Notes: a model not told the origin generated them from the letters alone. A DNA stretch of 64,000 nucleotides from an uncultured Phycisphaeraceae bacterium (GCA_964586145.1 CAZPHH010000009.1:5912-69911); one strand, 5' to 3'; positions 28,210-47,460 are shown, counted from the stretch's first letter. Program-made: numbers and translations.

Positions 28210-28261
28210 GCGACAGGCCGGATTTGCCGCACCGGCCGCACGTCGCCCGGTCCGCCGCCCC

Positions 28262-28402: not shown

Positions 28403-28406
28403 CCGC

Positions 28407-28904: not shown

Positions 28905-28912
28905 CCGCACCC

Positions 28913-29347
28913 GTGAGTCTCGACCGCCACCAGGCCCGTATCCTGGCCATGCAGTTGCTTGCCCAGATGGATGCTCAGGGGGACTCGTTCCTGGACGAGT
29001 TCGACGCATTCCTGGACAAATCGGAGTTGGCGCCGGCCCGCGCGACTCGGACATACGCCGCCGACCTGGCCCGACGAAGCTGGTCCCAGCGTCAGAAGCA
29101 AGACGAGCGTATCCGGGGTGTTGCCAGGCACTGGTCGCTGGAGCGGATGTCTCCCGTGGACCGCAACGTGATTCGGCTGGCCCTGGTGGAGCTCGAAGCC
29201 GGCACGGTGCCGGCTCGCGTGGTGATCGCCGAGGCCATCGAAATCAGCCGCGAATACGGGTCGGCGGAGTCGCCGCGATTCGTAAACGGCGTACTGGATG
29301 CGCTGTACCGACAGCAATCCGCCGCAGGCGGAAAGGACACAGGCTGA
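28913..29347 (+). CDS. nusB: transcription antitermination factor NusB
   Basis: GTG start 9 nt after the ribH stop. RHQARILAMQLLAQ...VDRNVIRLALVEL...INEAIEISREYG-like and FVNGVLDAL motifs. Confidence 0.85.
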   Translation: MSLDRHQARILAMQLLAQMDAQGDSFLDEFDAFLDKSELAPARATRTYAADLARRSWSQRQKQDERIRGVARHWSLERMSPVDRNVIRLALVELEAGTVPARVVIAEAIEISREYGSAESPRFVNGVLDALYRQQSAAGGKDTG

Positions 29348-30264
29348 TGGGTCTCTTTGATCGTTTGCGTAAGGGCCTGGCCAGAACGCGTGAGAAGGTC
29401 GCGGGCGGCGTGCGAGCCATCCTGCCGATCGGGAAACCCATTGACGACAAATTGCTGGACGACCTCCAGGACACGCTTCTGCTGGCCGACGTCGGGCCGG
29501 CCACCGTCGCCAAGCTGATCGACGTGACCCGACAGGCGTGGAAGCGGGGCAAGATCCGCGAGGCCCAGGAAATCGCCGCGTTCATTCAGGAGCACGTGGT
29601 CGCGATGTGGCCGCCGGCCGACCGCTCCATCCGGTTCGCGCCGGACGGCCCGACGGTGGTCCTCGTCACCGGCATCAACGGCTCCGGCAAGACGACCAGT
29701 ATCGCCAAGCTCTCGCACCACCTGACCCGCGAGGGCAAAAGCGTCATCCTCGGCGCCTGCGACACATACCGTGCGGCTGCCATCGAGCAGCTCACCGAAT
29801 GGTCCAACCGGATCGGCGTTCAGATCGTCAAGCACAAGCATGGCGCGGACCCGGGCGCCGTGGCCTATGACGCGTGCGATGCCGCTCTGGCCCGAAAGGC
29901 CGACGTCCTGCTGATCGACACCGCCGGCCGCCTGCACACGCAGGATCACCTCATGCGCGAGCTGGCGAAGATCCAAAAGGTGGTCGAGCGTAAGATTCCC
30001 GGGGCGCCCCACGAAGTATTGCTGGTCCTGGACGCCACCATCGGCCAGAACGCCGTCAGCCAGGCCCGAGTCTTCAGTGAGCACGTTTCGCTGACGGGAA
30101 TCATTCTGGCCAAGCTCGATGGCAGCGCGAAGGGAGGCATCGTCATCGGCATCCGCGACCAGTTGAACGTACCCGTGAAGTTCGTCGGGCTGGGCGAGAC
30201 GCCGGAGGACATCGAGCCGTTTGATCCCGCCCAGTTCATGAGCGCGATGTTCGCCACCGAGTGA
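29347..30264 (+). CDS. ftsY: signal recognition particle receptor FtsY
   Basis: MGLFDRLRKGLARTREK start overlapping the nusB stop (TGATG). NG domain with GINGSGKTTSIAKL, DTAGRLH, AKLDGSAKGG. Confidence 0.92.
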   Translation: MGLFDRLRKGLARTREKVAGGVRAILPIGKPIDDKLLDDLQDTLLLADVGPATVAKLIDVTRQAWKRGKIREAQEIAAFIQEHVVAMWPPADRSIRFAPDGPTVVLVTGINGSGKTTSIAKLSHHLTREGKSVILGACDTYRAAAIEQLTEWSNRIGVQIVKHKHGADPGAVAYDACDAALARKADVLLIDTAGRLHTQDHLMRELAKIQKVVERKIPGAPHEVLLVLDATIGQNAVSQARVFSEHVSLTGIILAKLDGSAKGGIVIGIRDQLNVPVKFVGLGETPEDIEPFDPAQFMSAMFATE

Positions 30265-30276
30265 CCCGAGCCCCGG

Positions 30277-30714
30277 ATGGCCCCTTGCGTCGGATGGCCG
30301 GTCATGAGCCTTGGATCAGACGAGATCAACCGCCTGATGACCGAGTCCATGCCCGGCTGGGGAATCACCGCGTCCCTGTTCTGCGGCACGTGCGGTTACA
30401 ACCTGCGGGGCCTGCCCTACTCCGGCGTGTGCCCGGAATGCGGCCACCGCTACAACGCGTGCGATCATCGTCTCACAGGCATCTTCCTCCCGAATGCCGT
30501 CCCCTTCCCCGGCTCCGACCTCGCATGTACCGTCCTGAGTTTCGGCATGGCCGGTCTGCTGGCCCTCATCGCGATGTCTGAGCGGGGAGCGATTGTGCCT
30601 GCCATTGCGTTTGCCGGCTTCGGCGTGGCCTTCGCCTACTTCACGTGGCGCAAGGCTCGCCTGTTTGTCCGCGCCCAGCGCATCCTCCGCAGGATTGAAC
30701 GGGAGCAAACCTGA
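30277..30714 (+). CDS. zinc-ribbon membrane protein, function unknown
   Basis: CGTCGYNLRGLPYSGVCPECG zinc ribbon followed by two TM helices. The start is uncertain. Confidence 0.5.
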   Translation: MAPCVGWPVMSLGSDEINRLMTESMPGWGITASLFCGTCGYNLRGLPYSGVCPECGHRYNACDHRLTGIFLPNAVPFPGSDLACTVLSFGMAGLLALIAMSERGAIVPAIAFAGFGVAFAYFTWRKARLFVRAQRILRRIEREQT

Positions 30715-30743
30715 TCCCGGGACCGCGAATCCCTCCTCGCGGA

Positions 30744-31121
30744 TCAGAACACCCAGTGGAACACGGTGGCATCCGCCACGGCCAGGACCGCGCAGACCAG
30801 CGACACCTTCACCCACAGCGGCCACGACGGCTTTCCCTCCGCCGCACCCCGTGGCGGCATCACCCTCAACGGCACGAACTGCCGGCGATCCACGGATTCC
30901 CGGGCTTGCGCGATCAGCTCGCCGGCCTCCACGGCGGACAAGTCCAGCAGGGCCCCATACTGCACCAGCCGCTGCCAGCGCCGGCGCGACATCCCGCCCC
31001 GTCTCACCTCCCCAGCCACCATCTCCCGAAAAACGGCGTGCCGTTGCGGGCGCGTCAGCCCCCGCGTCGGTGACGTATCCGCCCCCACCCGATGCAATCC
31101 CGACGATTCACCCTCGAACAT
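30744..31121 (-). CDS. hypothetical protein with C-terminal TM helix
   Basis: ORF with plausible composition and a C-terminal hydrophobic helix (WVKVSLVCAVLAVADATVF). No recognisable family. Confidence 0.4.
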   Translation of the reverse strand: MFEGESSGLHRVGADTSPTRGLTRPQRHAVFREMVAGEVRRGGMSRRRWQRLVQYGALLDLSAVEAGELIAQARESVDRRQFVPLRVMPPRGAAEGKPSWPLWVKVSLVCAVLAVADATVFHWVF

Positions 31122-31306
31122 GACCTTTCCTCCTCCTGTTGAACCCTAGGCGCGCCGAGTCGGCCACGCCACCGGCTCAACCCTGCCGGCTGAACCTGTG
31201 CGAGCAGAGGCGTATTCCTGGGCATTGTGCAGGAGAACCCGCCGCAATAAAGTCGTGCTTTTATTTGGTTGCGTGATTCTCTTCATGAAACCAATGGAAA
31301 TTACCG

Positions 31307-31334
31307 TTGTGTGAATGGAATCTGTCAGTATAAT
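31307..31334 (+). promoter_or_regulatory. candidate promoter of the deoR-BMC operon
   Basis: TTGTGT-16 nt-TATAAT (a perfect -10 hexamer noted by eye) in an AT-rich island. Flanked by two AATGGAA direct repeats 21 bp apart (31293-31299, 31314-31320). Confidence 0.45.
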
Positions 31335-31397
31335 TCCGGTTTCAGTCGCGAACTGTGCGATATCATTCAGGCTGATGCGCGTGCGGGGTAGAGAGCC

Positions 31398-32195
31398 GTG
31401 ACTACGCGGGATCGTCAGACAGAGATGTCCGCCTACCTGGCCGAACACGGATACGCATCCATTTCTGACCTCATGGCCCGGTTTGCCATCTCGGAATCGA
31501 CCGCGCGCCGTGATCTGCAGGAGATGCAGCAACGGGGGCTCCTACGTCGGACGCGCGGCGGCGCCTACTACGTCGGGACTCGAGAGCATCCGCTGAGCTA
31601 CGCCATCCGGGAGGGCCGGTTCACCCGCGCGAAAGAGGAGATCGGGCGTGTGGTGGCCGAGATGGTGCGGGATGGCGACTCGCTGATTCTCGACGGCGGC
31701 ACGACGACGTATCAGGTCGCCCGGCGGCTGCGGGGGCGACCGTTGCAGGTGGTTACGAATTCTCTGCCCATCGCCAACCTCCTCGGGAATGCGCCCCAGA
31801 CCGAATTGGTCTTTCTCGGCGGCTACGTCATGCCGCAGGCGGGCGTCGCACTGGGACCGCACGCCGAGAACATGCTGCGCTCGCTCACCGTGCGGATGGC
31901 CATCATGGGGACGGCCGGCATCACCGAGGAGGGGCTGTTCAACTCGCATCTGCTGATGGTGGAAGTGGAACGGTTGATGATGCAATCGGCGGAAGAGGTC
32001 GTGATCGCGGTGGACCACTCGAAGTTCGGGCGCAAGTCCATGGCCAAGCTCTGCGAGCTGGGTGAATTCCGGCACCTCGTCAGCGATGACGGACTGGAGG
32101 CCCGCTGGGTGAACCTGCTGGAGTCGTGCGGCACGGAGGTTCGGCTCGCCTCCACGGCCGACGGCGAGGACGACGACCCGGGAGAAACGCCATGA
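31398..32195 (+). CDS. DeoR-family transcriptional regulator
   Basis: N-terminal wHTH (ISDLMARFAISESTARRDLQEM) and a C-terminal DeoR sugar-phosphate sensor domain (LILDGGTTT...VVTNS). GTG start. Confidence 0.85.
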   Translation: MTTRDRQTEMSAYLAEHGYASISDLMARFAISESTARRDLQEMQQRGLLRRTRGGAYYVGTREHPLSYAIREGRFTRAKEEIGRVVAEMVRDGDSLILDGGTTTYQVARRLRGRPLQVVTNSLPIANLLGNAPQTELVFLGGYVMPQAGVALGPHAENMLRSLTVRMAIMGTAGITEEGLFNSHLLMVEVERLMMQSAEEVVIAVDHSKFGRKSMAKLCELGEFRHLVSDDGLEARWVNLLESCGTEVRLASTADGEDDDPGETP

Positions 32196-32872
32196 CCCAG
32201 ACCGCCTCGCAGTCCAAGCCGGACCGGGCGCGGATTGAACGCATCGTGCGGGAAATCGTCGCGGACCGTTTCGAACCTCGGCACACGGCCGGCCCCTCGC
32301 AACTCGTTGTGAACATTTCAGCCCGCCACCTGCACATTTCGCAGGAACACCTGGAGCATTTGTTCGGTCCCGGTGCGGAGCTGACCCCGTTCAAGCCGCT
32401 GTATCAGACGGGAGAGTTTGCGAGCGACCAGACGGTGGACCTGGTGGGCCCGCGCCGACGCATCCTGGCCAACGTGCGGATTCTGGGGCCCGTCCGACCG
32501 GCCACACAGATTGAACTGGCTTTTACGGACGCGGTGGGACTGGGCATCGACGTGCCGGTTCGCATGAGCGGCAATCACGAGGGCACGCCCGGCTGCCTGG
32601 TGCTCGGTCCGGCGGGCCGGCTGGAACTGACCCAGGGGGTGATCCGCGCGCAGCGACACGTACACATGACCCCGAAGGACGCGGAGCATTACGGCGTCCA
32701 GGCGGGCGATTCCATGACCCTGATTGTCGAACACGCCACGTGCGCCACGACGCTGCAGGGTGTTATCGCCCGGGTGCATCCAAGCTTCAAGCTCGAGGTG
32801 CATATCGACACCGACGAAGGCAACTGCTGCAATCTGGCGCAGGCAACGCACATACGCCTGGTGAAGGCGTGA
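32192..32872 (+). CDS. pduL: phosphate acyltransferase PduL (PTAC) with N-terminal encapsulation-peptide-like helix
   Basis: Two PduL repeats (VNISARHLHISQEHLEHLFG and VIRAQRHVHMTPKDAEHYGV). N-terminal amphipathic RIERIVREIVADRF. ATGA overlap with deoR. Confidence 0.9.
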   Translation: MTQTASQSKPDRARIERIVREIVADRFEPRHTAGPSQLVVNISARHLHISQEHLEHLFGPGAELTPFKPLYQTGEFASDQTVDLVGPRRRILANVRILGPVRPATQIELAFTDAVGLGIDVPVRMSGNHEGTPGCLVLGPAGRLELTQGVIRAQRHVHMTPKDAEHYGVQAGDSMTLIVEHATCATTLQGVIARVHPSFKLEVHIDTDEGNCCNLAQATHIRLVKA

Positions 32873-32932
32873 CAGACGTTCACGAGATACGGCCTGGCCG
32901 GGCAACGAAACACGGCCGACGGAGAAAGTGAT

Positions 32933-33238
32933 ATGGCAACGATTCAGGCATTGGGAATGATCGAGACGAGGGGGCTGGTGGCCCTCTTCGAGGCATCCGA
33001 CGCCATGCTGAAGGCAGCCAGCGTGGAGATGCTTGGCTGGCGAAAGGTCGGACGCGGCATGGTCACCAGCTTCATCGCAGGCGACGTGGCCGCGGTGAAA
33101 TCGGCCGTGGCCGCAGGGGAAGCCGCCGCCGCCAAGGTGGGAGAAGTGGTGGCCGTGCATATCATTCCGCGGCCCCACGACGAGTTGTCGGGGCTGTATC
33201 CCGACCGCAGCAAGGTGAAGAAGGGCGCAGGCAAGTAG
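32933..33238 (+). CDS. BMC-H shell protein (PF00936-type hexamer), Arg in pore motif
   Basis: ALGMIETRGLVALFEASDAMLKAA...GDVAAVKSAV...IPRPH. The pore loop is KVGRGMV instead of the usual K-I-G-S-G. Confidence 0.93.
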   Translation: MATIQALGMIETRGLVALFEASDAMLKAASVEMLGWRKVGRGMVTSFIAGDVAAVKSAVAAGEAAAAKVGEVVAVHIIPRPHDELSGLYPDRSKVKKGAGK

Positions 33239-33323
33239 GCAATCACGGCTCGGCCCTTCGGGCGCGGCCCGGCGTTGTGTCGTCCGGTGGGCGCCCGGAG
33301 CGTACCAGGCCCGGAGATGAACC

Positions 33324-33593
33324 ATGGATCAGGCAATCGGACTGGTGGAGACCGTCGGCGCGAATCCGTCCATTCAGGCGGCGGACGCCATGTGCAAGGC
33401 GGCAAGCGTGACGTTGGTGGGCAGTGTGGAGATCGGCAGCGGGTACGTCACCACGATCGTTCGCGGTGACGTGGGCAGCGTGAAAGCCGCGGTGGATGCC
33501 GGGGCGGAAGCCGCCAATGCAGCCGGGGAGCTGGTCAGCGCCCACGTCATTCCGCAGCCGCACGAGGACCTGATGGCGGCGATGATGGGGTAG
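33324..33593 (+). CDS. BMC-H shell protein
   Basis: [24 protein letters not shown]...[22 protein letters not shown]...IPQPH. Confidence 0.93.
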
Positions 33594-33609
33594 TTGCCCG
33601 CGCGGCGTT

Positions 33610-34779
33610 ATGGAAACCATGAACGTACTGGTCGTCAACATCGGCAGCACGTCCTTCAAGTTCCGCCTGTTTGACATGGCGGACGAGACGGTCCTGGCGC
33701 GCGGCAGCGTGGAGGGCGTAGGCAAGCCCGATGCGGCGGTCACGATCCGCATCGGAGACGACCCGCCCGCGGTCACGCATCAGCCGGTGCCGGACCAGGC
33801 GGCAGCCGTCGCCATCTGCACGGGCGGACTGCCCTGCCGCATCGACGCGGTGGGCTTCAAGGCCGTGCATGGCGGATCGATCGCGGACCCGACGGTTGTG
33901 ACGTCTGACGTGCTGCGCGTGATGGAGGAGTTCGCGGACGCGGTGCCGGCGCACAACCCGCCGTACGTCGCCGCGATGCGGGCGTTTCAGACGCGGATGC
34001 CGGAGGTTCCCCTGGTGGCGGCGTTCGAGACGGGCTTCCACCAGACGATCCCACTCACGCGGACGACCTTCGCGGTTCCGCACGAGTGGCGGACGGAGTT
34101 CGGTGTCCGGCGTTACGGTTTCCACGGGGCCTCGCACCGGTACATCGCCGTACGGACCGCCGAACTGCTGGGCCGGCAGGACCTGCGGGTCCTCTCGTGC
34201 CACCTCGGCGGCAGCAGTTCCATCTGTGCCATCCGGGACGGTCGCAGCGTGGCCAACAGTTTCGGCATGACGCCCCAGTCGGGACTGCCGCAGAACAATC
34301 GCGTGGGCGATTTCGACGCGTACGCCATGCTGCTGGTCCGGGCCCGAACGGGAATGGACCTGGATGCGATGCTCACGGCCATGGCCGGTGAGGGCGGGCT
34401 TCTGGGCATCAGCAGGCTGACCAACGACATGCAGAAGTTGGTGGAGGCAGCCCAGGCCGGGCACGCGGGCGCGGAACTCGCCCTCGGCGTTTTCGTGGAA
34501 AGCGTACGGCATTTCATCGGGGCGTACCTGTTGGCGCTGGGCGGGCTGGACGTGCTCGTGTTCACCGGCGGCATCGGGGAACGATCGCCCGAGGTGCGGC
34601 GGCGGGTGTGCGCGGGCCTGGAGTTTGTGGGCATTCGGCTGGATCCCGCGCGGAATGAAAGGGGCGGCGTCGAGGCCACGGTATCGGCTGACGGCGCTCC
34701 CGTCCGCATCCTGGCGATGCAGACGAATGAGGAGTTGATCGTCGCCCGGCAGACGAAACAGGTGCTGGCGACGCGATGA
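33610..34779 (+). CDS. ackA: acetate/propionate kinase
   Basis: VLVVNIGSTSFKFRLF, HNPPY, FHGASH and VFTGGIGE motifs of the AckA family. No terminal extension. Confidence 0.9.
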   Translation: METMNVLVVNIGSTSFKFRLFDMADETVLARGSVEGVGKPDAAVTIRIGDDPPAVTHQPVPDQAAAVAICTGGLPCRIDAVGFKAVHGGSIADPTVVTSDVLRVMEEFADAVPAHNPPYVAAMRAFQTRMPEVPLVAAFETGFHQTIPLTRTTFAVPHEWRTEFGVRRYGFHGASHRYIAVRTAELLGRQDLRVLSCHLGGSSSICAIRDGRSVANSFGMTPQSGLPQNNRVGDFDAYAMLLVRARTGMDLDAMLTAMAGEGGLLGISRLTNDMQKLVEAAQAGHAGAELALGVFVESVRHFIGAYLLALGGLDVLVFTGGIGERSPEVRRRVCAGLEFVGIRLDPARNERGGVEATVSADGAPVRILAMQTNEELIVARQTKQVLATR

Positions 34780-34842
34780 GTGAGCATTCGGGGCCGCCCC
34801 GCTTTGCGGGCCTGGTTCCTCTGAGAACGACCAAGCAAGGAG

Positions 34843-35124
34843 ATGGTTATGGCAAGGCAGGCACTGGGCTTGATTGAAACGCGGGGCCTTATCCCGGCGG
34901 TGGAGGCCACGGACGTGGGGCTGAAGGCGGCAAACGTCACCTTCGCCGGCGCTCGTCAGACCGGTTCCGGATTGATCAGTATCAGTCTGGTGGGTGACGT
35001 GGCGGCAGTGCGAGCGGCCACAGAGGCCGGTGCTGCGGCGGCCGCACGCCTGGGGGAGGTGATCTCGGTCGAGGTGCTCTCGCGTCCGCACGACGAACTC
35101 GAAAAGATCATGCCGAAGAAGTAG
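34843..35124 (+). CDS. BMC-H shell protein
   Basis: ALGLIETRGLIPAVEATDVGLKAA...TGSGLISISLVGDVAAVRAA...LSRPH. Confidence 0.93.
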   Translation: MVMARQALGLIETRGLIPAVEATDVGLKAANVTFAGARQTGSGLISISLVGDVAAVRAATEAGAAAAARLGEVISVEVLSRPHDELEKIMPKK

Positions 35125-35155
35125 CGCTGCCTCGGCCTCAAACGGGAGTGAACCC

Positions 35156-35479
35156 ATGTTCATCGGCAGAGTGACCGGCCACGTCGTGACCACGCAGAAG
35201 GAGCCGAGCATCGCCGAAGTGAAGCTGCTCGTGGTGGAGGCTTGCAACGTGGAGGGGCCCGGCGGCGCTGGGCTCAAGCCGACCGGGCGGGTACTCGTCG
35301 CGATCGACTCGCTCGGGGCAGGCGTGGGCGAATTCGTGCTGGTCACGCAGGGCAGCTCGGCCCGCATGACCGAACAGACCAAGACGATGCCTGTCGACGC
35401 GGTGGTGATCGGCATCATCGATGCGGTGCGGCTGCAGGAATGCGTGCTGCGGCGAGCGGACGGCACCCTCGGCGGGTGA
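35156..35479 (+). CDS. BMC-P vertex protein (EutN/CcmL family) 1
   Basis: MFIGRVTGHVVTTQK...LVAIDSLGAGVGEFVLVTQGSSAR is a typical PF03319 pattern. Confidence 0.9.
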   Translation: MFIGRVTGHVVTTQKEPSIAEVKLLVVEACNVEGPGGAGLKPTGRVLVAIDSLGAGVGEFVLVTQGSSARMTEQTKTMPVDAVVIGIIDAVRLQECVLRRADGTLGG

Positions 35480-35514
35480 CGCCACTCCACAGGCGTCGCA
35501 GACGGAAGTGAGCC

Positions 35515-36963
35515 ATGGCGACAACAGGCAGAAAGATGGATGAGACGCTGATCGCGGATGTGGTGAGCGCAGTGCTGGCCCGCCTGGGACCCGTTCCGGC
35601 GGTCCAGACGCCGCCCGCCAAGAGCGAGCCTTCTCCCGCCGGCCGGTTCGGCATCTTCCATGACGTCGACGCTGCGGTGAAGGCGGCCACCCAGGCCCAG
35701 CGCCAGTTGGCCGACGGCACCCTGGCCATGCGGGAAGCGGCCGTGGAGTGCATCCGCCACGTCATGCGACGCGACCGCGACGAACTCGCCCGCATCGAGT
35801 TTACTGAGACGAAGATGGGTCGTCTGCCCCACAAGCTCGCCAAACTCGACCTGGCGGCGACCGTCCCGGGCGTGGAAATGCTGCGCACCGAGGCCGTCAG
35901 CGGCGATCACGGGCTGACCATCACGGAATACGCCCCCTACGGCGTGATCGGCGTGGTGACCCCGGTCACGCACAGCATTCCCACGGTGGGATGCAACGCC
36001 ATCATGATGATCGCGGCCGGCAACAGCATGGTCTGCAACCCTCACCCCTCCGGGGCGAAGTGCGCCGTGGAGGCCGCCCGCCGGTTCAACCGAGAGATCG
36101 TACAGAGGATCGGAATCGACAATCTGATCTGCCTGATCGAGAACCCTACGCTGGAGAGCGCAGACCGCATCTTCCACCACCCCGGCATACGGATGCTCTG
36201 TGTGACGGGCGGACCCGGCGTGGCCAAGGCCGCGCTGGTGTCGGGCAAACGGGCTGTCGTGGCCGGTCCGGGCAACCCGCCGGTCGTGGTGGACGAGACG
36301 GCGGACATCGAGAAGGCCGCGGCGGGCATCATCGAGGGCGCCGCCTTTGATAACGACCTGCTCTGCATCGGCGAGAAGGAGGTCTTCGTAGTGCGGTCCG
36401 TGGCCGACGCCCTGATGGCCGCGATGGAACGTCACGGCGGGCACCGCCTGACACCGGCCGATCTGGACCGGCTGGCACAGGCCGTCCTCCACAAGGACGA
36501 GAAGACGGGCCACTACCATCCGAAGAAGGAATTCGTCGGGCAGGACCCGCAGGTGCTGGCCGAGACGATCGGCGTGCGGGTGGCGGCGGACGCACAGGTG
36601 CTGTTTGCCCAGACCACCGAAACCAATCCGTTCGTTCCGTGCGAGCAGATGATGCCCGTGCTGCCCATCGTTCCGGTGGCGGACGTGGACGAGGCCATTG
36701 CCAAGGCCGTGCACTACGAGCACGGATTCCGACACACGGTCATGATGTGGTCACGGAACGTGGACAACCTGACAAAAATGGGCAAGGCCAGTGACGCCAC
36801 CATCTTCGTGAAGAACGGCGCCTGCCCGGCCGGGCTGAGCGTCGGCGGCGAAGGATACGCCTCGTTTTCCATCGCCTCCCCCACGGGTGAAGGCGTCACC
36901 AGCCCGCTTTCGTTCACGCGGGCGAGGCGCTGCGTAATGGTGGACAATCTGCGCATCGTGTAA
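35515..36963 (+). CDS. CoA-acylating aldehyde dehydrogenase (PduP/EutE-like) with N-terminal encapsulation peptide
   Basis: N-terminal ETLIADVVSAVLARL helix plus a Pro-rich linker. ALDH core with catalytic-Cys context FDNDLLCIGEKE, as in BMC AldDHs. Confidence 0.9.
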   Translation: MATTGRKMDETLIADVVSAVLARLGPVPAVQTPPAKSEPSPAGRFGIFHDVDAAVKAATQAQRQLADGTLAMREAAVECIRHVMRRDRDELARIEFTETKMGRLPHKLAKLDLAATVPGVEMLRTEAVSGDHGLTITEYAPYGVIGVVTPVTHSIPTVGCNAIMMIAAGNSMVCNPHPSGAKCAVEAARRFNREIVQRIGIDNLICLIENPTLESADRIFHHPGIRMLCVTGGPGVAKAALVSGKRAVVAGPGNPPVVVDETADIEKAAAGIIEGAAFDNDLLCIGEKEVFVVRSVADALMAAMERHGGHRLTPADLDRLAQAVLHKDEKTGHYHPKKEFVGQDPQVLAETIGVRVAADAQVLFAQTTETNPFVPCEQMMPVLPIVPVADVDEAIAKAVHYEHGFRHTVMMWSRNVDNLTKMGKASDATIFVKNGACPAGLSVGGEGYASFSIASPTGEGVTSPLSFTRARRCVMVDNLRIV

Positions 36964-36980
36964 GAGACCGGATAGCGAAC

Positions 36981-37250
36981 ATGCTGCTGGGCACCGTGGA
37001 AGGACATGCAACCTCGACCGTCAAGCACCGCTCGCTGCGCGGCGTGAAGCTCGTGCTGGTGCAGCCCGTGCGGTCGATGACCGCGGAGCCGGTGCTGGCC
37101 GTGGACCGCATCGGGACCGCCGTCGGAGACGTGGTGATGATTTCCAGCGACGGCAAAGGCACGCGGGAGTTCGTCGGCGACCCCACGTCCCCCGCCCGCT
37201 GGACGATCGTCGGGATCGTGGACAATACAAAGGACCTGGCATTGGCATGA
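36981..37250 (+). CDS. BMC-P vertex protein 2
   Basis: MLLGTVEGHATSTVKH...LVLVQPV...LAVDRIGTAVGDVVMISSDG. Confidence 0.9.
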   Translation: MLLGTVEGHATSTVKHRSLRGVKLVLVQPVRSMTAEPVLAVDRIGTAVGDVVMISSDGKGTREFVGDPTSPARWTIVGIVDNTKDLALA

Positions 37251-37879
37251 GCCGCCCGCTGATCACCGTCAAGACCCTGATCGCCCAGTCACGCGAGGGC
37301 GCGGCCATCAACCTGCCCGCCGACGCGATCATCACGCCGGCCGCACAGGACTGGCTGCAGGCCACCCGCCTGCCCGTGCGTCGAAACGGCCCCGGCGCCC
37401 GCGCCCCGGCGTCCAGCCCCACGGTATACCTGATCGGCGACGCCCAGGAGCCCACCCTGCAGACGCTGCTGCCTATTCTGGAGCGGCAGCACGAGTCGCT
37501 GACCTTCCTGCCCTGCCAGGGACACCTGGCCGGCTGTCTCGATGCGGTTCGCCGCATGTGCGACGGCCTTTCTCAGTGCTCGCAGCGCCGCGGCATCGTC
37601 GTCGTCCGAGCGGGGAGCATCGTGAGTTGCGTGGCGAATCGGAATCCCAAGGTGCGCGCGGCCGTTCTGACCCGGCCGTCGGACCTGTACGGCCTGCAGA
37701 CAAACCTGGACATCAACGTGTTGGTTCTGGAGCAGGAGCGGCTGTCGCTGCGGCAGATGCAGTCGAGCATCGAGACGTTCCTGAGAGGCAAGGGCTCCCT
37801 GCACCCCGCGGTGGAGGCGGCGTTGTCCGGGACTGCAACGGCCAGCGCAAGCTGCATCCCCTGCAACGGAGCGAAATGA
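37247..37879 (+). CDS. BMC-associated protein: EutQ-N-terminal-like segment fused to a degenerate RpiB/LacAB-like domain
   Basis: N-terminus RPLITVKTLIAQSREGAAINLPADAIITPAAQDWL resembles the EutQ N-terminal segment (from memory). The C-terminal half aligns by hand to RpiB (GIVVVRAGSIVSCVANRNPKVRAAVL...INVLVLE), but the catalytic Cys/Thr/His positions are substituted. ATGA overlaps at both ends. Confidence 0.6.
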   Translation: MSRPLITVKTLIAQSREGAAINLPADAIITPAAQDWLQATRLPVRRNGPGARAPASSPTVYLIGDAQEPTLQTLLPILERQHESLTFLPCQGHLAGCLDAVRRMCDGLSQCSQRRGIVVVRAGSIVSCVANRNPKVRAAVLTRPSDLYGLQTNLDINVLVLEQERLSLRQMQSSIETFLRGKGSLHPAVEAALSGTATASASCIPCNGAK

Positions 37880-38169
37880 CCATGCGCGTGGGAAACGTGA
37901 TCGGCACGGTGACTCTCTCGCAGCGACTCGAAAACGTGGCCGGCGGCCGGTTCCTGGTCGTGCAACCGCGCGGGCTGGCCTCGCTGCGTGACGGGTCGCC
38001 GAGCACCGCCGAGCCCATCGTGGCGTACGACGAGATCAGCGCGGGGATCGGGTCCGTCGTCTCGATATCCGAAGGTCGCGAAGCGGCCATGCCGTTCCAC
38101 CCGCGCCTGGTCCCCGTTGACGCGTACGTGGCGGCCGTCCTGGACCACGTGGAGGCCGGGCAGTCGTAA
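37876..38169 (+). CDS. BMC-P vertex protein 3
   Basis: MTMRVGNVIGTVTLSQR...FLVVQP...VAYDEISAGIGSVVSISEG. Lies inside a longer out-of-context track ORF (37558..38169). Confidence 0.9.
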   Translation: MTMRVGNVIGTVTLSQRLENVAGGRFLVVQPRGLASLRDGSPSTAEPIVAYDEISAGIGSVVSISEGREAAMPFHPRLVPVDAYVAAVLDHVEAGQS

Positions 38170-38188
38170 TTGAAGTGAGGCAACAACC

Positions 38189-39379
38189 ATGGCGACGAAA
38201 TCGCTCGACATCAAGCTGGCCCGAATCAAGGCCGACCGGAACTGCAGGGAGTTCATCATCGCGGACGCGAAGGATGCGGACATGGCGTACGGCATCGCGT
38301 CCCCGGGCAAGAGCCCGGAAATGCATGCCCACGAAGCCCGGTTCCGCGGCCTGGAAGACTATCGCGAGTGTATCCGGCAGGTCGTTCACCACGGCCGCGT
38401 CGACGTCATGCTGATGTCCGCCCATACGAACTCCATTCTCACCGTGCGCGAGAAGCTGTTCGAGAACTCCCACGTGACACCCGCCGCCCGGGCCAACGAC
38501 ACCACGGACATCCACGTGGCGCGCCAGGGCGTGTACACGGGCGAACCCTCCCGGCCATTCGAAAGCACGACGATCGATCACATCCAGTGCGGCTATATCG
38601 ACTGCCGGGAGGAGGACCGCGCGATCGGGGCCAACCTCGGGCTGTACAGCGTCACGTTCAACAACGACGTGGAGCTCGACCGGCAGACGATGGAGCGATA
38701 CAAGGCGTTTCGCATTGAGGCGGAGCGTAAGGGCTTCCGGCACTTCCTGGAGGTGTTTGACCCCAACAAACCACAGAACCCCATCGACCCGACCCAGCTC
38801 GGCGGATTCATCAACGATATGGTCGTGCGAATGCTCGCCGGCGTTCCCGACGCCGGCCGGCCCCTTTTCCTCAAGATGGTCTACCACGGCCCGAAGTTCA
38901 CCGAAGAGCTGGCCAATTACGATCCGAAGCTCGTGGTGGGCGTTCTGGGCGGGGCGTCCGGCACCACCTACGACGCGTTCAAGCTGATCGCCGAGGCACA
39001 GAAACACGGCGCCCGTGTCGCCCTCTTCGGCCGCAAGATCAACAACGCCGAACACCAGTTGGCCTTCGTCGAGATGCTTCGCCGCATCGTGGATGGCGAC
39101 CTCTCGCCGGAAGAAGCCGTCCACGCCTACCACGGCGTGCTCCAGGCCCTGAACATCCGCCCCCATCGCCCGCTGGAGGACGACCTGCAGCTCACGAACC
39201 CTGCCGTGGGCCACAGCGGCGGACACACCATCAGCCTGCCGCCCGCACGGCGTGACGGCGCCGCCCGCGCCCCCTCCGGCCGCAAACCCCGCACCCAGCC
39301 GGACTTCTCCAAGATGACCAGCGAGGAGCGTCTGGCCTACCATCGCGGTCGGCTCCGCGGGATCGGAACGTGGTCATGA
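38189..39379 (+). CDS. class I aldolase-like TIM-barrel protein (DeoC/LacD/FbaB family) with ~60-aa C-terminal extension
   Basis: Hand alignment to YihT/LacD-type aldolases: GFRHFLEVFDP ~ strand with Glu, PLFLKMVYHG ~ Schiff-base Lys strand, VVGVLGGASGT...ALFGRKI ~ phosphate-binding end. There is a disordered P/R-rich tail ending in a short helix. Confidence 0.65.
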   Translation: MATKSLDIKLARIKADRNCREFIIADAKDADMAYGIASPGKSPEMHAHEARFRGLEDYRECIRQVVHHGRVDVMLMSAHTNSILTVREKLFENSHVTPAARANDTTDIHVARQGVYTGEPSRPFESTTIDHIQCGYIDCREEDRAIGANLGLYSVTFNNDVELDRQTMERYKAFRIEAERKGFRHFLEVFDPNKPQNPIDPTQLGGFINDMVVRMLAGVPDAGRPLFLKMVYHGPKFTEELANYDPKLVVGVLGGASGTTYDAFKLIAEAQKHGARVALFGRKINNAEHQLAFVEMLRRIVDGDLSPEEAVHAYHGVLQALNIRPHRPLEDDLQLTNPAVGHSGGHTISLPPARRDGAARAPSGRKPRTQPDFSKMTSEERLAYHRGRLRGIGTWS

Positions 39380-40704
39380 CGACCCTCAGACTCGATACCT
39401 CGGGTCTGCTGGATCGCATCGCGGCCAACGGCGTCGTCGGGGCCGGCGGGGCCGGCTTCCCCACGCACGTGAAGCTGGCCGGCAAGGTGGACACGGTCAT
39501 TCTGAACGCCGCCGAGTGCGAGCCGCTGCTCCACAAGGACAAGGAAATGCTGCGGCGCTACCCGGAGCAGGTCCTGGCCGGTCTGGTCGCGGCAGGTGAA
39601 CTGACGGGCGCGCGGGAGGTCATCGTCGGCGTCAAGGGCAAGTACGCCGAAGTGATCCGCCAAGTGCGTCCTCTCATGCCGTCGCACGGCCGCGTCGTGC
39701 CTCTTGCTGACGCCTATCCGGCCGGGGACGAGTTTATCCTGGTCTACGACGTGACGGGCCGGATCATTCCGCCCGGCGCCATTCCGCCGGTGGTCGGATG
39801 TGCCGTCCTGAACGTGGAGACCGCATACAACATCGGTGCCGGAAAGCCCGTTACAGAGAAGTTCCTCACGGTCGCCGGCGCCGTGAAGCGGCCGGTGACG
39901 CTTCGGGTCCCGGTGGGAATTCGCCTCGCGGAGGCCATCGATCTGGCCGGTGGGGCCACCGTTGACGATGCCCGCGTCCTGATCGGCGGAGTCATGATGG
40001 GGCAGCTTGCCGCTTCGCTCGATGAGCCCGTGACCAAGACCTGCGGCGGGCTCATCGTGCTGGGGCCGGACCACATGCTCGTGCGGCGATACGAGAGCCC
40101 GTGGAAGGAAATCGCCCGCATCGGCGCCGGCGCCTGCGACCAGTGCACGTTCTGTACGGAATTCTGTCCGCGCTACCTGTTGGGCCACCCGATCGAGCCG
40201 CACAAGGCGATGCGGTCGCTCGGCTTCGTAGAGGATCGCGAGCCGACGGTCATCGGCACGCAGTTCTGCTGCGAGTGCAACCTCTGCACGATGATCGCCT
40301 GCCCGGAGGATCTGGACCCCAAGAACGTCTGTACGCACAACAAGCGCCGGCTCGCCGCTGAGGGCCGCCAGTGGAGGGTCGACGCCAATCCGGACCGCGC
40401 CCGATTGCACATGGACGACCGGCGCGTTCCGATCAGCCGGCTCATCCGGAAGCTCGGGCTGTCGCAGTTCACGAACGAAGGTCCGCTGGAAGAGCCGGGC
40501 TACCGACCGGCCCGCGTGGTTCTGCCCCTCAAGCAACATGCAGGCGCGCCGGCAGAGCCGGTTGTGTCTTCCGGGGCCCGCGTGCGCCTCGGCGACGTGG
40601 TGGCGCGTCCGCCGAAGGACGCGCTGGGCGCCGTGATCCACGCCACCATCGACGGGGTCTGTGAGGTGTCGAAAGGCCAGGTAATCATCGCGGCGGCCGG
40701 ATGA
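39376..40704 (+). CDS. PduS/RnfC-like flavo-iron-sulfur oxidoreductase
   Basis: GAGGAGFPTHVK nucleotide motif, SLBB-like middle, two ferredoxin motifs CDQCTFCTEFCP and CCECNLCTMIACP. The ATG at 39376 overlaps the aldolase stop (ATGA). Confidence 0.85.
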   Translation: MTTLRLDTSGLLDRIAANGVVGAGGAGFPTHVKLAGKVDTVILNAAECEPLLHKDKEMLRRYPEQVLAGLVAAGELTGAREVIVGVKGKYAEVIRQVRPLMPSHGRVVPLADAYPAGDEFILVYDVTGRIIPPGAIPPVVGCAVLNVETAYNIGAGKPVTEKFLTVAGAVKRPVTLRVPVGIRLAEAIDLAGGATVDDARVLIGGVMMGQLAASLDEPVTKTCGGLIVLGPDHMLVRRYESPWKEIARIGAGACDQCTFCTEFCPRYLLGHPIEPHKAMRSLGFVEDREPTVIGTQFCCECNLCTMIACPEDLDPKNVCTHNKRRLAAEGRQWRVDANPDRARLHMDDRRVPISRLIRKLGLSQFTNEGPLEEPGYRPARVVLPLKQHAGAPAEPVVSSGARVRLGDVVARPPKDALGAVIHATIDGVCEVSKGQVIIAAAG

Positions 40705-41300
40705 CGTTGGAGCAATCACACATGCTCGAATCCGTGGGAATCATCGAATTGACCAGCGTGGGCATCGGATACGTCGTGCAGGACGCCATGCTCAAGGCGG
40801 CGGACGTCCGGCTGGTCCTGGGCCGCACCATCTGCTCCGGCAAATACATCATCGCGGTCACCGGCCAGGTGGCGGCCGTCACGGCCGCCGTTGAGAATGG
40901 CCTGGAAGCGGCGCCGGATGGCGTCATCGATCACTGCATCATCCCGCGGATTCACCCGACCGTATTCCGGGCGCTGGGCGGCGGCGTGGAATTGCACGTG
41001 CCGCACGCCGGCGTGGACGCGGAACACCCGCCCAAGGCGCTCGGCGTCGTCGAGACGTTCTCCGGCGTCAGCGTATTGGAGGCAGCCGACGCCGCGGCAA
41101 AGGCCGCAAACGTCGCACTCTTCCGCATCCACATGGCCATGGCCCTGGGCGGCAAGGGCTACATGCTGATGGCCGGCACGGTGTCGGACGTGCAGGCGTC
41201 CGTTGCGGCCGCCGCGGAAATCGTACGCAGGAAGGGCCTCCTCGTCTCCGCCGTTACCATCCCCGGCCCCTCGCGCGAACTGTTCTCCGAATACCTGTAG
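40701..41300 (+). CDS. BMC-T tandem-domain shell protein (PduT-like, Fe-S pore Cys conserved)
   Basis: Two BMC domains. Aligns along its length to PduT, including the RTICSGKY context of the pore [4Fe-4S] cysteine. ATGA overlap with the PduS-like gene. Confidence 0.9.
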   Translation: MTLEQSHMLESVGIIELTSVGIGYVVQDAMLKAADVRLVLGRTICSGKYIIAVTGQVAAVTAAVENGLEAAPDGVIDHCIIPRIHPTVFRALGGGVELHVPHAGVDAEHPPKALGVVETFSGVSVLEAADAAAKAANVALFRIHMAMALGGKGYMLMAGTVSDVQASVAAAAEIVRRKGLLVSAVTIPGPSRELFSEYL

Positions 41301-41440
41301 GGCGTCGCCGCCGACAACGGCCGCGTTTTCCCGCTATCGCACACGGTGCGACCGCACGCTTCCCCACCCTCCCGGCCAGCCTTGCCGCCACCCTCCGTGT
41401 TCGCGACATCCCCCGCTTCGGAGCATCCAGCGCAACGCGC

Positions 41441-41470
41441 ATAAAATTGGGCAGGCTTCTCAGCCTGCCC
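41441..41470 (-). terminator. Rho-independent terminator (minus strand), ~300 nt downstream of the GT2 gene
   Basis: GGGCAGGCT-GAGA-AGCCTGCCC 9-bp stem followed by AATTTTAT on the minus strand. Confidence 0.5.
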
Positions 41471-41594
41471 GATGGGACTTCCCCACGAGACTCGCACCAC
41501 TCCCTGCTCTCCCCGCGAGCTCGCCGGGAACCCCCATGCCCTCTCCCCACCCATCCCCCCTTGTGACCCCTCGCGTTCACCCCATCGGCCCGAT
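41441..41594 (-). ncRNA. speculative ~150-nt G-rich small RNA
   Basis: Minus-strand TTGACA (41629-41624), 17 nt, TAGGTT (41606-41601), same architecture as the 5S and S10 promoters. Ends at the 41441-41470 terminator. No family recognised. Confidence 0.2.
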
Positions 41595-41618
41595 GGGCAT
41601 AACCTACCTCAGGACAGT

Positions 41619-41648
41619 CTGGATGTCAAGCCATCCAGGAACTTTTTT
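41619..41648 (+). terminator. Rho-independent terminator (plus strand) downstream of the BMC operon
   Basis: CTGGATG-TCAAGC-CATCCAG stem-loop followed by GAACTTTTTT. Confidence 0.6.
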
Positions 41649-41771: not shown

Positions 41772-43346
41772 CTACCGTCGCTCCGGCCCGTTGCCGATCC
41801 GAGCGGCCGCCTCGGCCGGAACCTCGTGCGGCGGAATCGCCGGGTCGCCAGCCTTAGCCAGCCATGGGCTCAGCAAGGTGGTGAGCCCCACGTAGAGGAA
41901 GCCCACGGCAAACAGAGACATGAAGAAGGCGCCGATGGTGATCCATCCGCTGCGGATGCACAGGACCAGGCAGACGAACATGTTGGCGCCCATGACGATT
42001 TCCACAATCGCCAGCCAGGGCACCCGGCGGCGCCGCTTGGAGTACGCGGTCCGCTGCCGCCAGGCCCGCTCCTGCGAGCTGGCCACGCCGAATTTGGGCG
42101 TACGCACGAACTCGCTGACCTTCCCCGTGAACCCCTCCAGCGTGGCCAGGGCGTTGTTGTAGCAGATGCCGATGCCCAGCGCCATCAGGAACGGCAGATA
42201 CTTGAGGCTCTCCACCCACGTGCGCTGCAGCTCACGTTGGCTGCACACGTAGAAGCTGCTGGCCGAACAGGTAGCCACGATGAACAGCGACACGTCCACC
42301 AGATAGATCCGGAACGGGGAGGCCGGTGCCCCGCCCCACCGCAACAGCAGCACGGGCAGCAGCAGCAGCGTGAGGGCGACCATGTACAGGTAGACCGTGC
42401 AACTGGTCAGATGGAAGAACGCCTCCACCTTGATTCGCACCGGCAGTCGCGACCGCAGGATTTTCGGAAGCAGTTTGCGGCAGGTCTGGGCGCCCCCCTT
42501 GGCCCAGCGATGCTGCTGGGATTTGAACGCCGCCATGTCTGGCGGCAGTTCCGCCGGGGAGGCCACGGTGGGCAGAAACAGGAACTTCCATCCCTTGAGC
42601 TGCGCGCGATAGGACAGATCGAGGTCTTCGGTCAGGGTGTCATGCTCCCAGCCGCCGGCGTCCTGAATGCACGACTTGCGCCAGATGCCCGCCGTGCCGT
42701 TGAAACTCATGAAGCGTCCACTGCGATTGCGTGCCCCGTGCTCCATCACGAAATGCCCGTCCAGCAGAATCGCCTGAGTCCGGGTCAGCAGCGAGTGCTC
42801 GCGGTTGATGTGCTCCCAACGGGCCTGCACCATGCCGACGCGACTGTCCGTGAAGTAGTGAACGGTGTCCGTCAGGATGTTCGTCGGCGGCACGAAGTCT
42901 GCATCAAAGATGCACACAAACTCCCCTGTCGCGGTCTTCAGGCCGTTCTCCAGGGCGCCGGCCTTGTAGCCAGTGCGGTCGGTCCGGTGAATGTACTCGA
43001 TGTCGTGCCCCTCGCGCCGCATTCGATCCACCGCGGCCTGCGCAATCTCCACGGTGTCGTCCGTGGAATCGTCCAGCACCTGGATCTGCAGGCGATCGCG
43101 GGGGTACTCCACTTCACACGTGGTCTCGATGATCCGCTCGGCCACGTAGCGCTCGTTGTACATCGGGAGCTGAATCGTGACGCGCGGCATTTCGTCAAAC
43201 CGGACGGGCGGCTTCTTCGGCACGTTCCGCGCGTGCTTGTAGTACAGATACACCAGGTGGTACCGGTGCAGTCCGTACAAGCAGATCATCAGCATGATCA
43301 GACTGTACAGCCCGTAGATCACGTAGTTAAGCGTGTAGTGCGGCAT
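41772..43346 (-). CDS. processive GT2 beta-glycan synthase (CslA/cellulose-synthase-like)
   Basis: DDSTD, FDADF, TEDLDLS and QQHRW motifs with multiple C-terminal TM helices. Confidence 0.85.
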   Translation of the reverse strand: MPHYTLNYVIYGLYSLIMLMICLYGLHRYHLVYLYYKHARNVPKKPPVRFDEMPRVTIQLPMYNERYVAERIIETTCEVEYPRDRLQIQVLDDSTDDTVEIAQAAVDRMRREGHDIEYIHRTDRTGYKAGALENGLKTATGEFVCIFDADFVPPTNILTDTVHYFTDSRVGMVQARWEHINREHSLLTRTQAILLDGHFVMEHGARNRSGRFMSFNGTAGIWRKSCIQDAGGWEHDTLTEDLDLSYRAQLKGWKFLFLPTVASPAELPPDMAAFKSQQHRWAKGGAQTCRKLLPKILRSRLPVRIKVEAFFHLTSCTVYLYMVALTLLLLPVLLLRWGGAPASPFRIYLVDVSLFIVATCSASSFYVCSQRELQRTWVESLKYLPFLMALGIGICYNNALATLEGFTGKVSEFVRTPKFGVASSQERAWRQRTAYSKRRRRVPWLAIVEIVMGANMFVCLVLCIRSGWITIGAFFMSLFAVGFLYVGLTTLLSPWLAKAGDPAIPPHEVPAEAAARIGNGPERR

Positions 43347-43494
43347 GTGCGAAACTCATCCCTTGGCGCCCGACCCCGGACGGGCGTTCCGCGCCTTCCT
43401 CGCCCTCATCCGCAAGGAGGGTGTTTCATTCTAGCCGGAAGTGGTTCTGGTGACAACAGTTACCGGCATGCCCGATCCCGGCCCCATCGCGTCC

Positions 43495-43920
43495 CTACTC
43501 ACTCAGCGCCGCGTGAAGGGCCTCAACCAGCGCTTCCGCCCGACCCGGCTCATACCGCCCGGGGCGCCACCGATAGCCCAGCCCGTCGCCCTCCCGCCGC
43601 GGAATCAGGTGGAAGTGAAGGTGCATGACCTCCTGACCGGCCACCCGCCCGTTGTTCTGGAGCACGTTATACCCGTCGGCGGCCACGACGTTCCGAATCG
43701 CTCGTCCCAGCCGGGGCAACGACCGGCACAGCCCGGCGGCCTGCGACTCATCCAAATCGTCCAGCGCCACGATGTGGTCCCGGGGCACCCAGAGAATGTG
43801 CCCTTCCGCCAGCGGGCCGATGTCGAGGAACGCCAGCCCGTGCTCCGTTTCAAGGACTTTGTGGCAGGGGATTTCGCCGTGGATGATCCGGCAGAAGATG
43901 CACTGGGGGTCCCGAGGCAT
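43495..43920 (-). CDS. HIT-family nucleotide hydrolase/transferase
   Basis: CIFCRI zinc-like motif and histidine triad HLHFHLIP. Confidence 0.9.
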   Translation of the reverse strand: MPRDPQCIFCRIIHGEIPCHKVLETEHGLAFLDIGPLAEGHILWVPRDHIVALDDLDESQAAGLCRSLPRLGRAIRNVVAADGYNVLQNNGRVAGQEVMHLHFHLIPRREGDGLGYRWRPGRYEPGRAEALVEALHAALSE

Positions 43921-44013
43921 GGTCGCTTCCCTCCATGGCGTCCGGGCTGTCGCCCGTCCTCGGTCGACTCAGGCCTGGCCACCAGCCGCCCGCAACGAGA
44001 GGTCTGCGCCCCC

Positions 44014-44679: not shown

Positions 44680-44791
44680 GGTCCTCGACCGTCCACTTCA
44701 CGGAACCACGGCTGTCCGCTTCGCGGCCGACAGCCCTTGCGATATCTCTGACTACCTCCGAGCGGGCAGACGCGCCATTCCGGCGCGGGCC

Positions 44792-47441: not shown

Positions 47442-47460
47442 GCCTGGTCTCCTTCGCCGG

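Follow-up and report, generated by a model that had tools for sequence, protein, structure and literature searches.

In environmental data, few kinds of bacterial microcompartment (BMC) are as abundant as those of the PVM type (Planctomycetes and Verrucomicrobia microcompartment), which have been linked to the degradation of algal polysaccharides rich in fucose and rhamnose. The characterised PVM organelle serves growth on L-fucose or L-rhamnose, with lactaldehyde as the aldehyde kept inside. In two descriptions (PMC4207490, PMC11958385), the cluster of Planctopirus (Planctomyces) limnophila is written pvmABDEGHIJKLMNO, with PvmB as the phosphotransacylase (PTAC), PvmG as the kinase, PvmJ as the aldehyde dehydrogenase (AldDH) and PvmO as the alcohol-dehydrogenase equivalent. 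The locus examined in this paper lies in a stretch of 64,000 nucleotides from an uncultured Phycisphaeraceae bacterium (GCA_964586145.1, CAZPHH010000009.1:5912-69911); the whole stretch is called the window, and positions are counted from its first letter. Within it, an operon of 14 co-directional genes on the plus strand (31398-41300) is a lineage-specific derivative of the PVM metabolosome locus, belonging to one Phycisphaerae clade. This clade lost PvmO and PvmN, the latter of which we take to be the class II aldolase, and, with the exception of a single locus (L012), gained a PduS-like flavoprotein and a PduT-type shell protein.

Two further catalogue types are relevant. The class II aldolase of PVM is also present in PVM-like loci, which come mostly from Firmicutes and have GRM5-like core proteins (Axen 2014; Sutter 2021). 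The combination of a DeoC aldolase (PF01791) with RpiB (PF02502) defines the SPU type (sugar phosphate utilization; Axen 2014; Sutter 2021; PMC11585597). The deoxyribose-5-phosphate aldolase (DERA) of SPU6 is active on deoxyribose-5-phosphate, and its ribose-5-phosphate isomerase (RPI), in which Cys66 has been replaced by Asp, is essentially inactive and forms a complex with DERA (Dwyer, Sutter and Kerfeld 2024, PMC11585597). The initial annotation had called the window locus PVM-like, and this label does not fit, as the window lacks the features by which such loci are recognised: it has no class II aldolase and its host is a planctomycete. It had also described loci with DeoC and RpiB as predicted to be PVM-like and never characterised. 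Two catalogue types were merged in that statement, because DeoC with RpiB defines SPU, whose SPU6 complex was characterised in 2024.

The relation to PVM can be seen in gene order. The 14 proteins of the window operon, together with E. coli FucA, were mapped by tblastn onto the best 80 of at least 555 loci encoding X396, a protein of 396 residues from the operon (38189-39379, plus strand). The genes in the window run DeoR, PduL, BMC-H, BMC-H, AckA, BMC-H, BMC-P, AldDH, BMC-P, RpiB-like, BMC-P, X396, PduS-like, BMC-T. The canonical order, seen in Gemmataceae, Pirellulales, Isosphaeraceae, Verrucomicrobiota and other Phycisphaerae, is DeoR, PduL, BMC-H, BMC-H, AckA, (BMC-H), BMC-P, AldDH, BMC-P, (RpiB-like), BMC-P, class II aldolase, (Ldh/Mdh), X396; PF00596 and Ldh_1_N/C were confirmed by Pfam in example loci. 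The core and shell genes of the window are syntenic with 45 canonical loci and 40-70% identical to them per gene, so that the relation to the planctomycetal PVM organelle drawn in the initial annotation holds gene for gene. Like PVM loci, the window has a distinct BMC-P triplet beside BMC-H genes, and DeoR, PduL, AckA and acylating AldDH in PVM order. The closest genomes by X396 (94-95% identical) are metagenome-assembled genomes (MAGs) of Phycisphaerae and Planctomycetota, and the host thus falls among the Planctomycetota and Verrucomicrobiota that carry PVM. The PVM signature enzyme, a class II aldolase (PF00596), is missing from the locus. In many canonical loci, but not in every one, an RpiB-like gene separates the second BMC-P gene from the third, and X396 directly follows PvmN or PvmO, just past the last named pvm gene (a mapping that is partly inferred). 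No mention of X396 was found in the literature searched, and its presence at the end of PVM loci seems to have gone unnoticed.

All counts in this paragraph refer to 51 non-redundant BMC-linked X396 loci. A class II aldolase is present in 45, of which 26 also have Ldh/Mdh, and the pair of PduS and BMC-T occurs in none of these 45. Five loci lack both class II aldolase and Ldh/Mdh, and PduS and BMC-T are found in all five. L012, the one remaining locus, has no class II aldolase, no Ldh/Mdh and no PduS with BMC-T. Two further variant loci lie on contigs of 1.8 Mb and 0.59 Mb. A neighbour-joining tree of X396 groups the variant loci with L012 in a single clade, sister to canonical Phycisphaerae, which fits a single loss of PvmN and PvmO. 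The 14-gene arrangement is intact across about 30% protein divergence and has therefore been maintained by selection. The enzyme set had been described as unusual; this stands insofar as PvmN and PvmO have been lost and PduS and BMC-T gained, and it does not stand for the aldolase-like and RpiB-like genes, which occur in canonical PVM loci as well. The reported absence of a class II aldolase, alcohol dehydrogenase, B12 enzyme or glycyl-radical enzyme was borne out: tblastn gave no FucA-like match anywhere in the 64-kb window, and Pfam identified none of the other three among the operon proteins.

With the PVM-defining enzyme and the sole predicted alcohol-dehydrogenase equivalent gone, the operon could be imagined as a decaying PVM remnant with no working organelle. 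This is very improbable, as all 14 open reading frames (ORFs) are intact with coding-type third-position GC, the same 14-gene arrangement is found in distant relatives, and catalytic and motif residues are conserved.

With PvmN lost, attention falls on X396. No Pfam match was obtained for it even at E<=10, PF01791 included, and weak NCBIfam matches to ADH synthase and LsrF cover residues 250-314. In the family alignment, a highly conserved core (1-335) is followed by a Pro/Ala/Ser-rich linker of very variable length (about 336-370) and then by a C-terminal helix that is again conserved (PDFSKMTSEERLAYHRGRL; consensus PDFxKMTxxERLAYHRxRL) and is kept in every solo copy examined; a domain, a variable linker and a conserved terminal helix make up a cargo-type architecture. 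The AlphaFold2 (AF2) model (pLDDT 68, pTM 0.71) has an eight-stranded barrel with K229 on the sixth strand and a terminal helix at 378-392. Searched against the Protein Data Bank (PDB) with Foldseek, it matched 2qji, 3glc, 1w8s and LacD (probability 1.0, E~4e-9, TM to target 0.64-0.74). Every one of the best matches is a DhnA/LacD-type class I aldolase: M. jannaschii ADH synthase, E. coli LsrF, T. tenax FBP (fructose-bisphosphate) aldolase and LacD. On this model, X396 has a class I aldolase TIM-barrel fold. The earlier description of a class I aldolase-like gene is thus sustained at the level of fold and not at the level of family: X396 fails PF01791 and is therefore not a DeoC-family member by the family's own model.

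Motifs of X396 were compared with those of E. coli LsrF, FbaB and YihT. FLK229MVY in X396 is paired with IIK203TYY in LsrF, GG254-255 with GG226-227, and FGR282KINN (G281-R282) with MGR254NIFQ (GR253-254), the spacing of all three agreeing between the proteins. The beta-5 motif FLE188VFDP resembles IIE159PV of YihT, with which motif spacing agrees as well. These agreements are at the level of motifs. Seven residues, D26, E188, K229, G254, G255, G281 and R282, do not vary among the BMC-type, free-living and fused members of the family.

More than 8000 database relatives of X396 were found; those that are named are called 'hypothetical', and none has a Pfam domain. A profile search against 1.84 billion cluster representatives gave 1371 clusters at E<=1e-3. 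The loci, at least 555 in a scan of one genome per species, are spread over Phycisphaerae, Planctomycetia and Verrucomicrobiota, and more sparsely over Calditrichia, KSB1, Sumerlaeota and Acidobacteriota. Among the 1371 clusters is a shorter subfamily (about 327-348 residues), whose members end just past the barrel, with the motifs kept and no tail. In all seven contexts retrieved, these tail-less relatives adjoin or are fused to sugar kinases. One context comprises Lyx_isomer (a lyxose-type isomerase), a PfkB kinase, the X396-like gene and an AraC regulator; in two loci PfkB directly adjoins the X396-like gene; in another an ADP_PFK_GK-family kinase lies directly upstream; and elsewhere an FGGY kinase shares a cluster with genes for an ABC sugar transporter, Zn-dehydrogenase, GlpD-like oxidase and DeoR regulator. 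The other two are natural fusions of X396-like and PfkB domains, P0270 (727 residues) and P0333 (674 residues). The isomerase-kinase-aldolase logic of fucose and rhamnose pathways is recognised in these contexts, which makes sugar-phosphate aldolase the best-supported candidate function of X396. Among 23 loci with solo genes that bear the tail, no conserved neighbours were found, sulfatases in Calditrichia being the sole hint.

Several other observations concern X396 and its loci. In two diverged proteins, P0317 and P0323, the beta-6 Lys has been replaced; P0317 also lacks the beta-5 Glu and the G-R motif, P0323 retains the C-terminal peptide, and both may be inactive paralogues. On two unrelated contigs (L097, 219-1088; L101, 3-647), FAA_hydrolase-family genes are found close to tail-less X396-like genes; to this family belong the hydrolases that act on diketo-deoxy-fuconate and -rhamnonate in non-phosphorylative deoxy-sugar pathways. 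In a MAG labelled Cytophagia (L021, 4248-7100), a tail-bearing X396 is directly followed by an AldDH 42% identical to that of the window, with no shell genes on the 7.7-kb contig. In a Pirellulales MAG (L085, 10001-13305), a solo X396 in a satellite arrangement is convergent with PduS and a PduT-type BMC-T, no other shell genes lie within 10 kb, and the three genes are thus neighbours in a second order. Canonical Phycisphaerae have an ORF of 212-214 residues without Pfam match between the class II aldolase and X396 (L010, 9280-9924; L095, 9246-9884; also L014 and L015), at the place where Planctomycetia have Ldh/Mdh (PvmO). Finally, a MAG labelled Klebsiella pneumoniae (L073, CALQJI020000095.1) carries a Verrucomicrobiota-type PVM locus that clusters with L061 in the X396 tree; this bin is probably mislabelled or contaminated.

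The second change in the clade is the gain of an electron-transfer pair. The PduS-like gene (39376-40704, plus strand) encodes an NADH/FMN flavoprotein with two [4Fe-4S] clusters, and its domains are Complex1_51K (PF01512), SLBB (PF10531), Fer4_17 (PF13534) and RnfC_N (PF13375), with 210 bits to TIGR01945. It is directly followed by a tandem-domain BMC-T gene of PduT type (40701-41300, plus strand, likely start 40722), which has two PF00936 domains and scores 99 bits, below the cut-off, against TIGR02526 (eut_PduT). The form of 192 residues is the conserved one, and the Cys of RTICSGKY at residue 38, conserved in L001 and L002, corresponds to the pore Cys (Cys38) of PduT. Tandem BMC domains, a Cys at 38 and a PduS gene directly upstream identify the protein as PduT-type. 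As the operon has no B12-dependent enzyme, the role of PduS cannot be cobalamin reduction. The proposal that PduS homologues recycle NAD+ is cited in Dwyer 2024 (PMC11585597). We infer that PduS and PduT may take over NAD+ recycling from the lost PvmO, because they appear exactly where PvmO is absent.

These elements can be joined in a mechanism. An isomerase and a kinase in the cytosol would produce a phosphorylated ketose, which would enter the shell, where X396, held in the lumen by its C-terminal helix, would cleave it via a Schiff base on Lys229 into dihydroxyacetone phosphate (DHAP) and an aldehyde, which would be lactaldehyde if the substrate is still fuculose-1-phosphate or rhamnulose-1-phosphate. 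AldDH would convert the aldehyde to acyl-coenzyme A (acyl-CoA) and NADH, PduL would regenerate CoA by making acyl-phosphate, and the AckA-type kinase would yield ATP and the acid. NADH would be reoxidised by PduS, the electrons leaving via an Fe-S cluster at the PduT pore in replacement of the lost PvmO. The RpiB-like protein, with its catalytic residues lost, would probably act as a scaffold or partner for the aldolase, a role parallel to that of the inactive RPI towards DERA in SPU. A PVM-derived organelle in which X396 is the encapsulated ketose-phosphate aldolase supplying the aldehyde, and PduS and PduT recycle NAD+, is considered slightly more probable than all other explanations together. 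A wider proposal is more tentative, its chances being put somewhat below even. According to it, X396 would represent an unrecognised family of Schiff-base sugar-phosphate aldolases, kinase-coupled when free and tailed in BMCs; it would be the sole signature enzyme of this clade's PVM-derived, PduS/PduT electron-exporting organelle and an overlooked second aldolase in canonical PVM, where it would, for example, split rhamnulose-1-phosphate while PvmN splits fuculose-1-phosphate.

Several results weigh against X396 as the encapsulated aldolase. In addition to the failure of X396 in Pfam, its profile hidden Markov model recovered no aldolase from PDB sequences, just chance matches to the tail, and the AF2 model is of moderate confidence. 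Its residue matches to known aldolases consist of motif spacing and one weak local alignment, a segment shared with LsrF in hhalign (E=0.025), global mode giving no sensible alignment. The C-terminal peptide is basic and polar, unlike the hydrophobic encapsulation peptide of PvmN. No isomerase or kinase gene was found in the surroundings of the operon within the window, and the neighbours of the variant loci gave no substrate clue beyond recurrent ABC sugar-transporter genes. Both X396 and a class II aldolase are present in most PVM loci, and X396 may therefore have a role other than supplying the aldehyde.

In the main competing explanation, a class II aldolase is encoded at a satellite locus outside the window, X396 is an accessory acting, for example, on a second sugar phosphate or on DHAP, and the organelle works just as the characterised fucose/rhamnose PVM does. 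The class II aldolase stands beside X396 in 45 of the 51 BMC-linked loci, PVM organisation with satellite loci has been shown in Sutter 2021, and X396 itself is a solo satellite gene in many genomes. Moreover, the window is 64 kb of a MAG, and a tailed class II aldolase could be encoded elsewhere, which again counts against X396 as the only aldolase. However, the loss is clade-wide, stable over about 30% divergence and seen on contigs of 0.6-3.8 Mb, the window itself has no class II aldolase, and a search with a Phycisphaerae PvmN protein gave no match from the L001 genome among the 120 matches listed, which is weak evidence. The loss of PvmN also coincides with the loss of PvmO and the gain of PduS and PduT, which argues for re-engineering rather than relocation. 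A satellite aldolase is judged less likely than X396, with a probability of about one in four.

The remaining explanation concerns the RpiB-like gene (37247-37879, plus strand), whose product has 210 residues, with an EutQ-like N-terminal module of about 47 residues. The label of EutQ-N/RpiB-like given to it earlier is well founded: the resemblance to EutQ is real (RPLITVKTLIAQSREGAA..IITPAAQDWL in the window, KKLITANDIREAHARGEQ..IITPEAREVA in E. coli EutQ), and PF02502, one of the two families that define SPU, is passed weakly at residues 99-181 (33.3 bits, cut-off 24.7). In an AF2 model of pLDDT 85, the top Foldseek matches are all RpiB. The catalytic Cys66 and His99 of RpiB/LacAB isomerases (E. 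coli numbering) are absent; their columns are variable in the family alignment, with Val and Thr in the window protein, and isomerase activity is therefore unlikely. By analogy, the protein is probably a non-catalytic scaffold or partner of the aldolase, because inactive SPU RPI binds DERA. The family also has conserved Cys90, Cys105 and Cys206 and a short, variable C-terminal tail containing Cys.

An SPU-type compartment might accordingly be considered, in which X396 would be a very diverged DERA-like aldolase and deoxyribose-5-phosphate, or a similar sugar phosphate, would pass through acetaldehyde, acetyl-CoA and acetyl-phosphate to acetate. The descriptions of SPU1, SPU4 and SPU7 fit a BMC-P-flanked RpiB-like gene beside an aldolase-fold enzyme, the BMC-P triplet, the PTAC, and PduS alongside a BMC-T of PduT type, and the RpiB-like protein lacks catalytic residues as SPU RPI does. 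PduL has Glu at the 'Gln77' position, where Gln or Glu is found in acetyl- and propionyl-CoA types and Tyr or Phe is tied to lactyl-CoA. This residue would fit SPU better than a lactaldehyde pathway, though it is not discriminating, because half of the canonical PVM loci likewise lack Tyr/Phe (F/Y in 16, Q/E/D in 15). On the other side, X396 fails PF01791, the SPU-defining model, its nearest folds are DhnA, LsrF and LacD enzymes with no DERA among the 50 Foldseek matches listed, and it co-occurs with a fuculose-phosphate-type aldolase in canonical PVM loci. The core and shell genes, moreover, are those of PVM loci in order and identity. An SPU-type compartment is thus improbable, clearly more so than a satellite aldolase.

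The other operon genes, all on the plus strand, encode the regulator, the core enzymes and the rest of the shell. The DeoR-family regulator (31398-32195; PvmA equivalent) has PF08220 (HTH_DeoR) and PF00455 (DeoRC) domains and starts at GTG 31398 or, as gene callers give, at ATG 31425 (256 residues), with an in-frame stop just upstream. The PduL-type phosphotransacylase (32192-32872; PvmB equivalent) scores 231 bits against PF06130 (PTAC) and matches PDB 5cuo (E=3.7e-40); its N-terminus is an amphipathic helix (RARIERIVREIVADRF) followed by a linker. Residue 77 of PduL was also considered as a lactyl-CoA marker and was dropped, the canonical set being split 16 to 15. The acetate/propionate-family kinase AckA (33610-34779; PvmG equivalent) gives 333 bits to PF00871 and 323 bits to TIGR00016. 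The CoA-acylating AldDH (35515-36963; PvmJ equivalent) matches PF00171 and NCBIfam PRK15398 (612 bits); it has a Cys within NDLLCIGEKE and begins with an encapsulation-peptide-like helix (DETLIADVVSAVLARL), amphipathic like that of PduL, before a Pro-rich linker. Three BMC-H proteins match PF00936 (32933-33238, 92 bits; 33324-33593, 94 bits; 34843-35124, 75 bits). Three BMC-P pentamers, mutually 28-33% identical, match PF03319 (EutN_CcmL): 35156-35479 (97 bits; PvmH equivalent), 36981-37250 (77 bits) and 37876-38169, or from 37882 (65 bits). An equivalent BMC-P of about 109 residues is labelled pvmH in the tree files of Sutter 2021.

Much of what the initial annotation had claimed for the structure of the operon was upheld. 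All 14 ORFs are present and unbroken, with high, coding-type third-position GC in a window of 65% GC, and 12 of the 14 proteins have clear Pfam matches. When the shell ORFs were run against the Pfam models for BMC-H, BMC-P and BMC-T, every one matched PF00936 or PF03319, and the seven shell genes claimed are indeed present as three BMC-H, three BMC-P and one BMC-T. The families of the AldDH-PduL-AckA core and the BMC-P triplet, on which the reading as a metabolosome had been based, were likewise found by Pfam. ATGA start/stop overlaps had been reported at five junctions (32192, 37247, 37876, 39376, 40701). The motif is present at all five, and two of the overlaps depend on the start codon chosen: they are uncertain because on identical metagenome contigs the third BMC-P and BMC-T are called from 37882 and 40722, respectively. 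The reading of the overlaps as a sign of tight translational coupling and stoichiometry control was not retained, since compact operons ordinarily contain such overlaps and only three of the five are free of this uncertainty. The extent had been given as 31293-41648; 31293 is intergenic and the last gene ends at 41300, and a terminator-like hairpin followed by a T run, found by consensus scan at 41618-41639 (plus strand), is a possible operon end, though terminator-like sites in the region are no more numerous than in shuffled sequence. The intergenic stretch upstream of DeoR is AT-richer (54% GC) and contains the hexamer TATAAT at 31329; a promoter consensus scan there found nothing.

The surroundings of the operon are housekeeping genes. 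YidC, RibH, NusB and FtsY lie upstream (26116-31150), a GT2 glycosyltransferase, a HIT protein and the L17/RpoA/S4/S11/S13 ribosomal operon lie downstream (41772-59940), and no catabolic genes adjoin the operon in these flanks. The sole obvious polysaccharide-degradation gene of the window encodes a 1413-residue protein with BNR_4 and a C-terminal GH88 (unsaturated glucuronyl hydrolase) domain (19903-24144, minus strand); the rest of the window is housekeeping.

Should X396 prove to be an encapsulated aldolase, the PVM pathway as now accepted, with one bifunctional class II aldolase, would be incomplete. A Phycisphaerae clade would then run its organelle on a different signature enzyme and with a different device for NAD+ recycling. 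A function would also be given to the X396 family, with at least 555 loci and thousands of predicted proteins that match neither Pfam nor any PDB sequence and NCBIfam only weakly, and a new cargo-targeting peptide would become available for shell engineering.

A comparison with known systems displays how the window operon combines features of several. The PVM locus of P. limnophila shares with it the order DeoR-PduL-H-H-AckA-P-AldDH-P-(RpiB-like)-P, the BMC-P triplet, the AldDH/PduL/kinase core and a Planctomycetota host; by comparison, the window lacks PvmN and PvmO and has, in addition, a third BMC-H, the PduS-like flavoprotein and the PduT-type BMC-T. PVM-like loci are, like the window, metabolosomes with an aldolase as presumed signature enzyme and, in most cases, a DeoR regulator. 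SPU loci resemble the window in an RpiB-fold protein that lacks, or in the window probably lacks, isomerase activity, beside a class-I-aldolase-fold enzyme among BMC-P genes, in the BMC-P triplet and, in some subtypes, in a PTAC with a PduS/PduT-type pair. What defines SPU, however, is a DERA of PF01791 that has an N-terminal extension, whereas X396 of the window fails this model, is closer to DhnA, LsrF and LacD enzymes than to DERA and carries a C-terminal peptide. The Pdu and other metabolosomes have the same PduS domain set and a tandem BMC-T with pore Cys, encoded by adjacent genes as in the window; the Pdu pair differs in that a B12-dependent enzyme is absent from the window operon. At the level of the enzyme, DhnA/FbaB, LsrF, ADH synthase, LacD and YihT have the TIM barrel in common with X396 and, as far as motifs and their matching spacing suggest, the beta-1 Asp, the beta-5 Glu (as in LacD and YihT), the Schiff-base Lys on beta-6 and the GG and G-R phosphate-binding motifs, which in the DhnA/LacD type lie on beta-7 and beta-8. 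Compared to these class I aldolases, X396 has about 57 extra residues in its N-terminal half and, in the BMC type, a linker and C-terminal helix; it also differs from the PF01791 superfamily in that no family model and no PDB chain matches its sequence significantly.

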